Shown: piece after piece, positions 33,618 through 42,278 of the stretch
Layout: every line of letters begins with the position of its first letter
Numbering within the stretch: the stretch's first letter is position 1
Translations under genes and position numbers: made by a program
Sequence record: OZ035789.1
Reading direction: 5' to 3' (one strand)
DNA length: 64,000 bases
Source: Tequatrovirus BCH953P4
Notes under the pieces: model-generated
The model's database searches: none
What the model was told of the DNA's origin: nothing
The model's input: the letters and a program-made list of their open reading frames with translations, nothing else

Positions 33618-34091
33618 TTATTTGAATGATTTAACGTACTGAATAGAACCTTTACTATTCACAAAGGCAATTTTACCATTTTTGTTATACATGGTAGCAG
33701 TACGCTGATAGCCATAAGTTTGTTTACCAGATTGATAACCAACTAATGCAAAATTATCTTCACCCATTTTATTCTGTTTAGCGCGAATGCGTTCATGACC
33801 ATGTGCCATAAGAACCTTAGCATCACCAGTTGCAATGGATCTACGAGTTTTTTCATCTTCAACTGTATTAACAAAGTCGTCAAATGAATCAAATTTAGCA
33901 TGAGATTTATTATACAGTTTTCCATCTACTGCATAATTATATCCCTGTACATCCATCTCAACTTCTGTACCATCATCCAATACAGCAGTGATTTTTTGAC
34001 CTTTTTTAAATTTCAAAAGATCAGTAAAAGATTCAGCAATAATTTGAGAATTAATAGCTGCTTCAGTGATAAATTCTTGATATGTTTTCAT
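33618..34091 (-). CDS. Internal protein (IP family), 157 aa, with capsid-targeting leader
   Basis: N-terminus MKTYQEFITEA matches the conserved IP capsid-targeting sequence cleaved after Glu by the prohead protease. Confidence 0.6.
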   Translation of the reverse strand: MKTYQEFITEAAINSQIIAESFTDLLKFKKGQKITAVLDDGTEVEMDVQGYNYAVDGKLYNKSHAKFDSFDDFVNTVEDEKTRRSIATGDAKVLMAHGHERIRAKQNKMGEDNFALVGYQSGKQTYGYQRTATMYNKNGKIAFVNSKGSIQYVKSFK

Positions 34092-34100
34092 ATGTTTCCT

Positions 34101-34517
34101 TTAAATGTAAATATTTTTACCGTAATACTTATACCAATGTGGTTTCATTAAAATTTTTTCATCAAGTCGTTGTTGACTCAATTTAATAGCTGATTTGCAT
34201 GGATTATAATCATTTTTCCATTCTACTGGAATATCGCTGATGTCAGGAACTTCAGTATCTTTTATACTGAACCCTCGTTTTAAGCATTCCGTTATAATGT
34301 CCGATTGACGCTTTCGCAAAAATTCTAACTTATCGTAAAAGAAAGTAACATGACCAGAACCTAAAATAAATTTAGAAGATATTTTAAAATCTTTAACGCG
34401 CTTACCATTTGCCACATGCTTACGAACTATACCAAAAACACGTGGCAATTCACGATATTCTGCGATTAAATGTTGATCAGCAAGTTCAGATACTAAAGTC
34501 AAATTAATACGAGTCAT
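34101..34517 (-). CDS. denV: Endonuclease V DenV (pyrimidine dimer DNA glycosylase), 138 aa
   Basis: [17 protein letters not shown]…ELPRVFG…[16 protein letters not shown] matches remembered T4 DenV with substitutions. Confidence 0.9.
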
Positions 34518-34542
34518 TTTATCCCTCCAAGTAACTGTGAAT

Positions 34543-34572
34543 ATACTATCACAATTCTAGGAGAAAGTAAAC
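34543..34572 (-). promoter_or_regulatory. Early promoter for denV: -35 GTTTACT, 17-nt spacer, -10 TAGTAT
   Basis: Read on the minus strand upstream of the denV ATG. Confidence 0.5.
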
Positions 34573-34576
34573 AACT

Positions 34577-35071
34577 TTATAGATTTTTATACGCGTCCCA
34601 AGTGCCAGTTCTAAACGTTGCAATGACTCGTTTTGCGCGATTAGGTGTTTGATTATACCATCTACTTTTAGCTAAGTTAACTGCTGCTTCATCCCAGCGT
34701 TTTTGTTGAAGCATACGCAAAGAGTTAGTGAATCCAGCTACGCCAGTTTCTCCCATTTGGAAAACCATATTAATCAATGCACAGCGACGAACAGCATCAA
34801 GAGAATCATAAACTGGTTTTAATTTAGCATTTCTCAAAATTCCACGAACAGCAGCATCAACATCCTGGTTAAAGAGTTTTTCAGCCTCATCTTTTGTAAT
34901 TACGCCATTGCAATTACGCCCAATAGCTTTATCTAATTCAGATTTAGCAACACTTAATGATGGACTTTTAGTAAGCAAATGACCAATGCCAATAGTGTAA
35001 TAGCCTTCTGTGTCTTTATAGATTTTAAGTCTAAGACCTTCATCTATACGTAACATTTCAAATATATTCAT
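34577..35071 (-). CDS. e: Lysozyme (endolysin, gene e), 164 aa
   Basis: [33 protein letters not shown]… matches T4 lysozyme including Cys54/Cys97 context; two substitutions versus my recollection. Confidence 0.95.
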
Positions 35072-35101
35072 AATACCTCCTAAGTATTTATAGAAGGTAT
35101 T
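35072..35101 (-). promoter_or_regulatory. RNA hairpin sequestering the lysozyme Shine-Dalgarno (translational control element)
   Basis: 10-bp stem AAUACCUUCU / AGGAGGUAUU whose 3' arm contains AGGAGG, ending next to the AUG. Confidence 0.6.
35085..35092 (-). promoter_or_regulatory. Late promoter TATAAATA within the hairpin loop/5' arm upstream of gene e
   Basis: Exact TATAAATA on the minus strand; transcripts starting here would lack the 5' arm and expose the Shine-Dalgarno. Confidence 0.6.
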
Positions 35102-35108
35102 TATAAAA

Positions 35109-35549
35109 TTAAAAAAGGTTGTTCATTATTCGGTAAAGTGAAGGACCCATCACATATTGCCACTGAGTACGAGGAATAAGAGCAAAAGCATCCATCTCTG
35201 GAATCATAACACCATCTTTATTTTCAAAATAAGACTCACAATAGCAATTTCTGAACATCTCATGCTCTACTGGAATCGCATAATAAAATAGCTGTAAGTC
35301 TTTATTACTAGAATATTTAAATACACCTAGGTCTTCTAGAAGGTCTGGATTATAATTGCTAAAACCGGTCTCTTCTAAACATTCTCTTCGTGCTGCATCT
35401 AGTGCACTTAAATCAGAATTTTCTACACGGCCCTTTGGAATATCCCAGCGATGTGCCATCATTCCAGGCTTACGAGAACCAGTAACCCGACCCATAAATA
35501 AATCTTTATCTTCTGTCATGAAGATAATACCAGCTGATAATGTTTTCAT
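35109..35549 (-). CDS. nudE: Nudix hydrolase NudE (e.1); start uncertain (ATG at 35549 or TTG at 35564)
   Basis: Nudix box [24 protein letters not shown]; AGGAAA Shine-Dalgarno before the ATG. Confidence 0.75.
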
Positions 35550-35845
35550 TTTAATTTCCTGCAATCACTCACAAACTCTTTCATTGATTCATTTTCAATA
35601 TAAGACATGTAGCTATTATATTCTTTTAATTGTATTTTGTAATCCTTTTTTCTTTGCCAATTTATTTTAAAATTATCATAATGAAAATATAACATGGTAC
35701 CAAAGAATGAAAATAATGAAATAATTTTAGTATAGTGAAGTTCACTCCAAACTTCTGTTATATTTACTGTGCCGTCGATGTTTAAAATAAGACAGTCAAT
35801 TAACAATCCAAAAAGACTACCCGCAAGAGCTGCAGCCAACGCCAC
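35546..35845 (-). CDS. Small membrane protein, 99 aa
   Basis: ORF track; hydrophobic segments. Confidence 0.45.
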   Translation of the reverse strand: MALAAALAGSLFGLLIDCLILNIDGTVNITEVWSELHYTKIISLFSFFGTMLYFHYDNFKINWQRKKDYKIQLKEYNSYMSYIENESMKEFVSDCRKLK

Positions 35846-40521: not shown

Positions 40522-40607
40522 ATTATTAACAAAGGCTCTCTAACAAGAACCCTTGATGATAGAGGGTATTAATCAGTGCGATATGAATTAATAATAACAA
40601 ATAATTC

Positions 40608-41132
40608 TTAAAGCAAATTAAACATTTTAACGGTCGGCAAAACAATTTCTTCTTCTATATAAGAGTATTTAACACTCTCAACTACACGCAAAAAATCATA
40701 ATCATAATACTCAGAAGCATTACCTAAAATATTAATAAGTCCTTCAAGCACTTTATTACCATTCACAAAGAATAAGTCAAATACACGTTCTTCATCTTCT
40801 TCAGATTTATTACCAAGATCAACTTCTATGCGAAAGACCTTTTTAATGAATTCTGGATAAAGCTGGTCTGAGAACAGTCCTTCAACCAAGTATTCATAAA
40901 TAAAAAGAGATTGCTCGCTGAACAAACCATTACCACAATAGCGCTCAATTTTAGTACTAGAATATCTGCTTTTAAACTTCTTTAAAAGATACTGAAATTG
41001 TAAGATTTCATGCTCTTCTACGCCAAACAGTGTTTTAGTTTTATAGTTGTCACCATCATTTTCCCAGGTAGTGACATCAATTACGTAGCCCTGCGGAATT
41101 GTAGTACCTAAACAAATATTCATTTTCACCAC
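40608..41132 (-). CDS. Hypothetical protein, 174 aa
   Basis: ORF track. Confidence 0.5.
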   Translation of the reverse strand: MVKMNICLGTTIPQGYVIDVTTWENDGDNYKTKTLFGVEEHEILQFQYLLKKFKSRYSSTKIERYCGNGLFSEQSLFIYEYLVEGLFSDQLYPEFIKKVFRIEVDLGNKSEEDEERVFDLFFVNGNKVLEGLINILGNASEYYDYDFLRVVESVKYSYIEEEIVLPTVKMFNLL

Positions 41133-41416
41133 GCTGCATTAATGTAAGTATATTTAATACATCCAAGACCCAAAGGATTCTTGAAAATATCATATTCAAG
41201 AGGACCTTTTTCTGTTTCAATAAAGAAATCAAAATTTACTGTATTAAATGCACGGTCTTCCTTTACTAATTTAACTTGAGAAGATGAACGGTCAATGTAA
41301 ACCTTTTCAACTTCAAAACATGTTAAAACGCCATAATCATCAATCAAGGCTTTAGCTGCGTCTTGATCATATTTATATCCATTTTCAATGGATGATACTT
41401 TAGCATAAAGAATCAT
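41126..41416 (-). CDS. Hypothetical protein, 96 aa
   Basis: ORF track. Confidence 0.5.
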   Translation of the reverse strand: MILYAKVSSIENGYKYDQDAAKALIDDYGVLTCFEVEKVYIDRSSSQVKLVKEDRAFNTVNFDFFIETEKGPLEYDIFKNPLGLGCIKYTYINAAW

Positions 41417-41418
41417 TA

Positions 41419-41799
41419 TCAGCCTTCATCAACAATAGTATGAGTGTGGGCATTTACAATTTGCCACCAATCAAAGCGATTAGAACCATACATCGGTTTG
41501 TTTTCATTTTCTTTGATAATATCACGGAGTTCATCTTCGGTAGCGGCTTTCGCGATTAAATCAGCATATCCACCACGAGGATAATAATTATCACCTGCAA
41601 AAAGTAAAAAGTTTGGTTTAATATTATTAAACTCTTCAAGAGTAATAACTGTTCCACCAGGTTGAACAATCTCTACATAACTATATCCTAATTTTTGAGC
41701 AGCATCTACTGCTTCAAGCAGGGTATCATGAGCCCATCCAATTTGGCAATCTGGCTTTTCAGATGGATTAGCCTGATAATCCGCGTACACTTTATACAT
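41419..41799 (-). CDS. Hypothetical protein, about 126 aa, start refined to MYKVYADYQ
   Basis: ORF-track N-terminus overlaps the upstream ORF; internal ATG chosen. Confidence 0.45.
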   Translation of the reverse strand: MYKVYADYQANPSEKPDCQIGWAHDTLLEAVDAAQKLGYSYVEIVQPGGTVITLEEFNNIKPNFLLFAGDNYYPRGGYADLIAKAATEDELRDIIKENENKPMYGSNRFDWWQIVNAHTHTIVDEG

Positions 41800-41800
41800 T

Positions 41801-41986
41801 CTATTCACCTTTAGAAATTTTATCCATAACGATAGCAATTAAACCAATTAAAAATGCTACTACAAGTGAAAAAACATTTTCTGCTGTAGTCAATAATCCG
41901 CATATAAATCCAACAAACATTGAAAAACTAAAAGCGGAAGCAGAAATTGCAATAGCAACATTTCGAATTAATTCACAACGTTTCAT
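41801..41986 (-). CDS. Small membrane protein, 61 aa
   Basis: ORF track; ATG start downstream of an early promoter; hydrophobic. Confidence 0.45.
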   Translation of the reverse strand: MKRCELIRNVAIAISASAFSFSMFVGFICGLLTTAENVFSLVVAFLIGLIAIVMDKISKGE

Positions 41987-42014
41987 TTTATTCTCCTCAG
42001 TAGTTGATAGGGTA

Positions 42015-42044
42015 ATAGTATCACTACCCTATCTAAAAGTAAAC
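42015..42044 (-). promoter_or_regulatory. Early promoter: -35 GTTTACT, 17-nt spacer, -10 TACTAT
   Basis: Read on the minus strand upstream of ORF 41801-41986. Confidence 0.5.
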
Positions 42045-42278
42045 TTATTTTTTACGAAAAATTGATTTATTTTCTGCTGCCCATTTTTCAATAACTGCAG
42101 CCGGACCAGTAACAACAATTTTATCACCGTAATCTTCTGCGGCGAGTTGACCGAAATTATCTAATGCATCACGAAGAACTCCATGAGGCATTTCACCCAT
42201 TTTATCTTTCTTGCCAGTGTAAATAAACTCAACTTTTACATCAGAAGATTCAGCGATAAATTCTTTAAACGTTTTCAT
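42045..42278 (-). CDS. Internal-protein-like small protein, 77 aa, with capsid-targeting leader (ipI position)
   Basis: N-terminus MKTFKEFIAES matches the IP capsid-targeting pattern; lies just downstream of 57B. Confidence 0.55.
   Translation of the reverse strand: MKTFKEFIAESSDVKVEFIYTGKKDKMGEMPHGVLRDALDNFGQLAAEDYGDKIVVTGPAAVIEKWAAENKSIFRKK

Follow-up and report, generated by a model that had tools for sequence, protein, structure and literature searches.

Internal proteins (IPs) reach the host cytoplasm ahead of all other phage proteins, and it is established that IPs sharing only a capsid-targeting sequence (CTS) make up a diverse anti-restriction cargo (PMC3012670, PMC9026906, PMC12373910). 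In phage T4, each of Ip1, Ip2, and Ip3 blocks a GmrSD type IV restriction enzyme of its own and gives no protection against the targets of the other two (PMC12373910), and IPIII is required for growth on ECOR17 (PMC12373910, PMC9391042). Mutagenesis of the IPIII leader, as reviewed in PMC9026906, assigned targeting to residues 4 and 7 and processing to residues 8 and 10; the gp21 protease cuts after L/I-x-E (PMC9026906). The shuffling of IP genes is said to be confined to two IP loci (PMC2839356). Here we consider three open reading frames (ORFs) of Tequatrovirus BCH953P4 (sequence record OZ035789.1) in a stretch of 64,000 nucleotides (nt), which we call the window: ORF1 (33618–34091), ORF2 (38295–38768), and ORF3 (42045–42278). 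On the basis of what we observed (the leader motifs, the families to which the ORFs belong, the anatomy of promoters and repeats, and an ORF2 orthologue in a virion preparation), we think it likely that all three encode T4-type internal (injected) head proteins that are packaged and processed; targeting, cleavage, injection, and a role against host defenses are what we infer for this phage. ORF1 and ORF3 are already known, as Ip4 and Ip6. What is new is ORF2, which is not annotated as an IP and lies outside the recognised IP loci.

A preliminary description of this DNA had proposed three internal-protein genes with capsid-targeting leaders. Its coordinates and N-termini were exact, and it left the strand unstated: all three ORFs are on the minus strand, and the plus-strand translation of the same coordinates has many stops. 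The products are 157, 157, and 77 amino acids (aa) long, and the T4 IPs have 95, 100, and 193 aa, so the remark that these sizes are unlike those of IPI, IPII, and IPIII stands. The three leaders share the form M-K-[ST]-[YF]-x-x-F-[IL]-x-E. In the T4 record, IPII and IPIII begin with MKTYQEFIAE, which compares with MKTYQEFITE in ORF1 and MKSYTQFLNE in ORF2, and IPI begins with MKTFKEF; the L/I-x-E site for gp21 is common to all. When we aligned the leaders with the known CTS, positions 4, 7, 8, and 10 were kept in all three ORFs. The targeting positions are Y4 and F7 in ORF1 and ORF2 and F4 and F7 in ORF3, and every leader has Leu or Ile at position 8 and Glu at position 10. The predicted gp21 sites (a slash marks the cut) are ITE/A in ORF1 (leader at 34062–34091, minus strand), the first LNE/A of MKSYTQFLNE/AVLNE/A in ORF2 (38724–38768, minus strand), and IAE/S in ORF3 (leader MKTFKEFIAE, 42249–42278, minus strand). 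ORF2 has two tandem L-x-E sites, the second LNE/A being at residue 15, with Y4, F7, L8, and E10 at the functional positions of the CTS. ORF1 has a second invariant site, IAE/S, which ends at residue 20.

Could the shared leader be due to chance or to an annotation artefact, with ORFs that are not genes? Only the shortness of the motif speaks for this. We searched all ORF starts of at least 40 aa in the window with a strict N-terminal pattern, M[KR][STAN][YFW]xx[FLIMV][ILVM]xE. It matched 3 of 1153–1175 starts, which are exactly ORF1, ORF2, and ORF3, and none in 200 shuffled windows; the chance expectation is about 0.02–0.05 matches per window. The nine-residue core of the leader occurs just once more in the 24,645 residues of the six-frame ORFs. 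Furthermore, each ORF is preceded by a Shine-Dalgarno sequence, there are hundreds of conserved orthologues, and matches to family hidden Markov models have E below 1e-50. We give the idea of an artefact almost no credence.

Beyond the leader, the three proteins are unrelated, as had been proposed. BLASTP found no significant similarity among the mature regions of ORF1, ORF2, and ORF3 or to T4 IPI, IPII, and IPIII; hhalign of the three family profiles pairs only residues 1–10/19; and sequence searches of the PDB with the three ORFs gave nothing meaningful. The likeness to IPII and IPIII lies also in small, basic, non-essential mature proteins. Mature Ip4 (approximately 15.5–16.5 kDa) has an isoelectric point (pI) of about 9.1 and mature ORF2, like T4 IPII and IPIII, is basic (pI about 9.5), while mature Ip6 (approximately 7.4 kDa) is near neutral. 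The differences from IPII and IPIII are that the mature sequences are unrelated and that the T4 genes lie between e and denV and are absent from the window.

The closest relatives of this region, according to megablast with positions 33000–43900, are Tequatrovirus KFS-EC3, NIC06P2, Yersinia phage phiD1 (= fD1), Kha5h, and teqhad, at 95–97% identity; over 1,100 records of T4-like phages were matched. The gene order on the minus strand is as in T4: gene 1, 57A, 57B, the ipI slot, trna.4 to trna.2, a tRNA cluster with a segB-like GIY-YIG gene, rnaD and rnaC, e.8 to e.2, nudE, e, denV, and vs.8. The ORFs do occupy three separate loci. ORF3 is in the ipI slot and ORF1 is beside denV, which are the two classical IP loci (57B–trna.4 and e–denV–vs.8), and both loci have early promoter/stem-loop elements. 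ORF2 lies outside both: it follows a terminator and a late promoter, and its neighbors are rnaC and e.8.

By sequence, ORF1 is Ip4, an already named internal protein. This 157-aa pro-protein (ip4 or IpIV; minus strand) matches Pfam DUF7412 with E = 5.7e-96 and 319 bits (the cut-off is 27), with residues 1–157 on profile positions 1–158, and phrog_3155, “internal virion protein,” with 6e-102. Its orthologues are named ipIV or “Ip4 internal head protein” in Kha5h, teqhad, and PP01. We found Ip4 in 469 phage records, and in 289 of these it is at least 99% identical. Similarly, ORF3 is, by sequence, the already named internal protein Ip6 (ip6 or IpVI; 77 aa; minus strand). It matches phrog_8111 over 77 of 77 positions (3.3e-51), has the same sequence (100% identity) as ipVI of phages PST and GiZh, and belongs to a family of 244 records that is named ip6 in fHoEco02 and VR7. 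Overall, the families are those of Ip4 of T2, RB14/32/51, and PP01 and of Ip6 of PST, GiZh, and VR7, among which there are 100% identical copies in the same genomic positions, the sole difference for Ip6 being that this allele starts its leader with the ipI-type MKTFKEF. It is highly probable that Ip4 and Ip6 are packaged and processed, and nothing new follows from these two.

ORF2 (157 aa, minus strand) is a candidate new internal protein. It belongs to phrog_2280, “unknown function,” and matched no Pfam, NCBIfam, or PADLOC family. By tblastn, the family is found in 510 phage records, and in all the matches listed it is labeled “hypothetical protein” or “Phage protein,” even where ip6 is named (e.g., in fFiEco06). 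The sole exception among the names of cluster members is a Klebsiella relative called “Internal head protein” in UniRef. Neither T4 nor T2 has the gene, which may be why classical work missed the family. ORF2 consists of the leader, a conserved helical N-domain (approximately residues 16–75), a basic Pro/Ala/Lys linker (76–87), and a helical hairpin (88–154). The AlphaFold model (predicted local distance difference test score, 75) is all-helical, with a floppy leader helix, a small domain at 18–75, the Lys/Pro/Ala linker, and a long hairpin.

The leader of ORF2 is conserved across distant homologs. A HMMER profile search of 1.84 billion representatives gave 13 proteins, all from this same small family. 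Relatives that are 24–42% identical overall begin with MLKFNEFLAE, MINFSDFLNE, MKSFSSFLNE, MLEYSEFLKE, or MKFKEFLAE, so that the four functional positions are kept and positions 3, 5, 6, and 9 vary. Among 18 family members that we examined, 17 have an aromatic residue with Phe three positions on (with a shift of one residue in four cases); the remaining one, the chimera P0013, has no N-terminus. E15, in the second LNE/A site, is invariant in an alignment of eight family members. The extended leader of ORF2 is also similar to one in Kha5h, where it belongs to an annotated internal head protein of 93 aa (MKTYSEFLSESILNEA versus MKSYTQFLNEAVLNEA). The DNA encoding the leader is identical to that of ipII/ipIII at 20 of 30 positions, which points to selection on the peptide rather than a recent copy.

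The ORF2 gene is preceded by a consensus late promoter. An exact T4-type late promoter box, TATAAATA, is at 38809–38816 (minus strand), 48 nt before the ATG. It immediately follows the rnaC terminator (38823–38846), which is the strongest of the region. The order of terminator, box, about 35–40 nt, ribosome-binding site, and ATG is repeated in RB27, in Klebsiella Jiaodavirus KpV477, and in Yersinia phage fHe-Yen9-01. The window has no excess of exact boxes (13 observed versus 10.8 expected), so we rejected enrichment, and the presence of a box by itself means little; it is the conserved position that counts as evidence. Across the relatives in Tequatrovirus, Jiaodavirus, and Tegunavirus, the box behind a terminator is kept despite diverged intergenic DNA. 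For example, the KpV477 protein is about 50% identical and its intergenic DNA is otherwise different, and the box is there. In fHe-Yen9-01, two tandem paralogues stand behind a single box and both carry the leader. A distant metagenomic relative has a 7/8 match to the box at -44. The copies that we compared are all just downstream of the cluster of tRNAs and small RNAs.

The gene is flanked by two copies of a 36-nt direct repeat (83% identical; 559 bp from start to start). The upstream copy (38814–38849, minus strand) is the stem-loop of the rnaC intrinsic terminator plus GGTAT, and the downstream copy (38255–38290, minus strand) is the terminator after ORF2, again with GGTAT behind the stem-loop. 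T4 and T2 have one copy of the repeat and no cassette: their sequence, ...GGGGCTTTTTGGTAT/CTAGGCC... (the slash marks the junction), is the upstream flank of the window up to GGTAT and then the downstream flank. This is exactly the pattern of presence and absence that recombination between the repeat copies would give. In our proposed mechanism, ORF2 would be a self-contained 559-bp module, with a late promoter, ribosome-binding site, gene, and terminator, that is gained or lost by homologous recombination between the flanking terminator copies.

The described system that is closest to this arrangement is the promoter-early stem-loop (PeSL) cassette, which, together with PeSL-like elements, is found at IP loci of T-even phages (Arbiol et al. 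2010, PMC2839356). As with ORF2, a single accessory gene lies between repeated regulatory stem-loops, and some relatives have one copy of the element and no gene, as T4 and T2 do at the ORF2 locus, which fits gain and loss by recombination between the flanks. The elements are different, however. The PeSL element, which T4 ipII and ipIII have, is an early promoter/stem-loop, and the element at ORF2, at another locus, consists of an intrinsic terminator and, after it, a late promoter. If it is an IP gene, ORF2 would be an exception to the PeSL model on two counts: a third locus, and a module made of a terminator and a late promoter.

If these proteins behave like the T4 IPs, the N-terminal capsid-targeting sequence of about 10 residues would bind the pro-protein to the scaffolding core during prohead assembly. 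The prohead protease gp21 would then cut after L/I-x-E, namely after E10, with a probable second cut after E20 in Ip4 and after E15 in ORF2. In Ip4, both E10 and E20 (in IAE/S) are invariant among 14 family members, which suggests a possible propeptide of 20 residues. The N-terminal peptide predicted for ORF2 is AVLNEASSTEIQAVAK if it is cut after E10, ASSTEIQAVAK if it is cut after E15, and SYTQFLNEAVLNEASSTEIQAVAK if it is uncut; for Ip4, we predict AAINSQIIAESFTDLLK after a cut at E10 and SFTDLLK after a cut at E20. The mature proteins would stay with the packaged DNA and be ejected into the cell along with it.

Virion proteomics of a close relative, fD1, bears on packaging. Its g129 is the orthologue of Ip4 and is listed as “Head protein, PPAP.” Its g140 is the orthologue of ORF2 (156 of 157 residues identical) and is listed as particle-associated by liquid chromatography with tandem mass spectrometry of ultracentrifuge-purified virions. 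The list of particle-associated proteins has 113 entries, and 11 of the 32 proteins in the block g110–g141 are flagged, including denV, lysozyme, and NudE.

We considered whether ORF2 might instead be a late accessory protein that is not packaged and acts in the infected cell (in late expression, DNA handling, or lysis timing), with a CTS-like N-terminus that is a relic or a coincidence, in which case Ip4 and Ip6 would be ordinary IPs. The fD1 list, where the orthologue stands together with clearly non-structural proteins, would fit this as well, as would the locus outside the two known IP loci and the label “hypothetical,” which ORF2 carries in nearly every record, including those with a named ip6. 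A coincidence is hard to reconcile with the chance expectation given above for the leader pattern, and a relic would not be expected to persist in three genera. Also, the four functional positions of the leader are kept down to about 24–40% identity while their neighbors vary, and the L-x-E sites are kept. We consider an unpackaged ORF2 to be unlikely. It is probable, if less firmly so than for Ip4 and Ip6, that ORF2 is packaged and processed by gp21, and ORF2 is probably an injected internal protein. The ORF2 family is probably a further IP family at a non-canonical locus, and the more than 30 IP variants to which PMC2839356 refers may include it.

Several observations weigh against the view that all three ORFs encode injected internal proteins with anti-defense roles. 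Because denV, lysozyme, and NudE are on the fD1 list, there was carry-over, and the list is weak evidence that ORF2 is packaged. ORF2 is outside the two loci to which IP genes are thought to be confined (PMC2839356), although location in an IP locus is a habit of the family described there and not a functional requirement. ip4 has no consensus late promoter of its own, only 7/8 matches, and the promoter that we found for ip6 is of the early type only, with no consensus late box of its own. Searches with structures and folds gave no functional hint for these candidates. Finally, when ip4–ip10 were tried against further GmrSD variants in 2025, there was no reproducible inhibition (PMC12373910, Supplementary Fig. 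9).

If the example of T4 Ip1, Ip2, and Ip3 holds, each IP would most likely neutralise one specific first-line host defense, and distinct host-defense targets for Ip4, Ip6, and ORF2 would be the standard expectation. The view of IPs as diverse anti-restriction cargo, on which the preliminary description drew, is the established one. T4 Ip2 and Ip3 have known GmrSD targets, and none can be assigned to ORF1, ORF2, or ORF3. For the mature parts of the three ORFs, BLASTP and hhalign found no relationship to Ip1, Ip2, or Ip3 beyond the leader, and fold searches with the models of ORF2 and Ip4 found no IP relatives. With the ORF2 model, Foldseek gave no match at E < 0.001 in the PDB and only ORF2’s own family (including Serratia phage PS2) in BFVD. 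Since T4 Ip1, Ip2, and Ip3 are themselves mutually unrelated, the lack of similarity to them is no argument against an inhibitor function.

Another possibility is that the proteins are packaged but that some of them serve the particle, by neutralising charge, organizing the packed DNA, or helping to assemble the core, in line with the part that T4 IPIII has been suggested to play in head morphogenesis. Mature Ip4 and ORF2 are basic, as noted above, and ORF2 has a Lys/Pro/Ala linker; IPIII- and IP0 mutants of T4 show aberrations in head assembly (PMC9026906); the extreme conservation of Ip4 is not what is expected of a gene in an arms race; and the failure of ip4–ip10 to inhibit GmrSD variants would fit too. 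Nevertheless, all three T4 IPs have specific GmrSD targets even though two of them are basic (PMC12373910). In addition, phages can do without IP genes, and close relatives differ in which ones they carry (ORF2 is missing from T4 and T2, and ipII and ipIII from the window), as one would expect of accessory host-range genes more than of structural genes. A role in the particle is possible, especially for the very conserved Ip4, and we judge it rather improbable, if a little less so than an unpackaged ORF2.

Returning to injected proteins that counter host defenses, we tentatively extend this reading to all of phrog_2280. The family could be an unrecognised class of injected IPs at a third IP locus, by the tRNA/rnaC cluster, in Tequatrovirus, Jiaodavirus, and Tegunavirus; it would be carried by an autonomous cassette, with its late promoter and terminator, that moves by recombination between terminator copies; and it would counter a defense other than the GmrSD variants blocked by T4 Ip1–3. 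We hold this combined proposal to be plausible and stop short of calling it probable. As all three T4 IPs inhibit different GmrSD enzymes, each added IP family is a candidate inhibitor of an unknown first-line defense and a candidate determinant of host range in therapeutic T4-like phages. Should ORF2 prove to be an IP, IP genes would not be limited to the two classical loci, scans based on the leader would find more of them, and a family in about 500 sequenced phages would gain a function class.

The position of ip4 had been described as between a vs-region gene and denV, and it is: the neighbors are vs.8 (93% identical to T4 vs.8) and denV. The suggestion that this position is unusual did not hold up. 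Ip4 is between denV and vs.8 in Kha5h, teqhad, and fD1 as well, T2 also has Ip4, and the place next to denV is the standard one in T2, RB, and fD1-type phages. In the e–denV intergenic region, there is an “empty” slot with a single early promoter/stem-loop of 59 nt (34518–34576, minus strand) that is joined to the ribosome-binding site of denV; T4 has ipIII and ipII there. Upstream of e are two exact late promoter boxes, as in T4 (35085–35105, minus strand), and these are the likely source of late e–denV–ip4 transcripts. A late promoter with one mismatch upstream of ip4 was rejected as meaningful, as such matches are at the expected frequency (223 observed versus 222 expected). Compared with T4 ipII, ip4 is identical at 31 of 40 nt upstream and 27 of 30 nt of leader DNA, and then the similarity ends abruptly. 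This shared upstream sequence overlaps the end of denV, which places the junction of the cassette within the 3' end of denV; at 34092–34130, denV ends in ...GKNIYI before the stop codon, versus ...GKAIYA in T4. In phage T2 (AP018813), the Ip4 gene (positions 7430–7903 of the T2 stretch) is labeled “valyl tRNA synthetase modifier,” and no denV is annotated between it and e.

In the ipI locus, the slot downstream of 57B that T4 fills with IPI, which inhibits the GmrSD of E. coli CT596, is held here by Ip6. T4 IPI has 95 aa and its sole L/I-x-E (ITE) ends at residue 19, whereas Ip6 has 77 aa and a 10-residue leader ending in IAE. Their similarity stops beyond residues 7–10, and hhalign of Ip6 and T4 IPI aligned just 14 residues, with a probability of 7%. 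At the DNA level, the first seven codons and the upstream promoter region of ip6 and T4 ipI are essentially identical, with divergence after that. The early-type promoter (TTTACA-17-TACTAT; 42309–42337, minus strand) is within an inverted repeat and is nearly the same as the one before T4 ipI. The leader of this Ip6 allele begins with MKTFKEF (42258–42278), as in T4 ipI, and most Ip6 proteins begin with MKTYQEF; because of the ipI-type start, the sequence suggests a crossover inside the DNA that encodes the leader. Two exact TATAAATA boxes, at 41370–41377 (in a trna.2-like ORF) and 43404–43411 (in gene 1, dNMP kinase), both on the minus strand, could be a source of late transcripts to ip6 or 57A. 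In T2, the ipI slot holds “internal head protein 7” (MKTFKEFINEA...).

Around ORF2, an Rfam scan recognised tRNAs alone, with no model for the rnaC/rnaD region (38850–39160). The tRNA cluster (39163–40521) has eight genes, and between tRNA-Arg and a tRNA with a CAU anticodon is a gene for a 221-aa GIY-YIG (segB-like) homing endonuclease (39243–39908). The CAU-anticodon tRNA is called Met in the window and Ile in T4.

The ORF2 family itself shows some irregularities of annotation and of sequence. In the RefSeq record of Kha5h (NC_054905), the 157-aa homologue (positions 7556–8029 of the Kha5h stretch; MKSYAQFLNEAVLNEA...) is unannotated and falls in a gap between e.8 and a “putative terminator.” In Klebsiella phage KpV477 (positions 2995–3530 of the KpV477 stretch), the gene has an in-frame stop (GTAKP-stop-AAKK) and is annotated as separate small coding sequences; other Klebsiella phages have an intact protein of 177 aa. 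The chimera P0013, from a Logan contig of 2898 nt, is a 94-aa protein in which the middle of a trna.3-like protein (...AATEDELRDIIKEN) is followed by the C-terminal 32 residues of ORF2 (PHAHSLEYVEDIQ...). From comparison with positions 41419–41838 and 38295–38390 of the window, we deduce that about 3 kb were lost in a natural deletion, with trna.2, all of the tRNA cluster, segB, rnaC/rnaD, and the greater part of ORF2. Finally, the genus of fHe-Yen9-01 has several leader-bearing genes in the tRNA region, which in fHe-Yen9-01 we read at positions 1200–1358, 1922–2491, and 2501–3037 of its stretch: a 52-aa ORF with the perfect leader MKTYIEFINE, between tRNA-Trp and tRNA-Gly, and the two tandem ORF2-family paralogues (MLQYNEFLKESLISEA... 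and MLEYSEFLKELFCEAS...).

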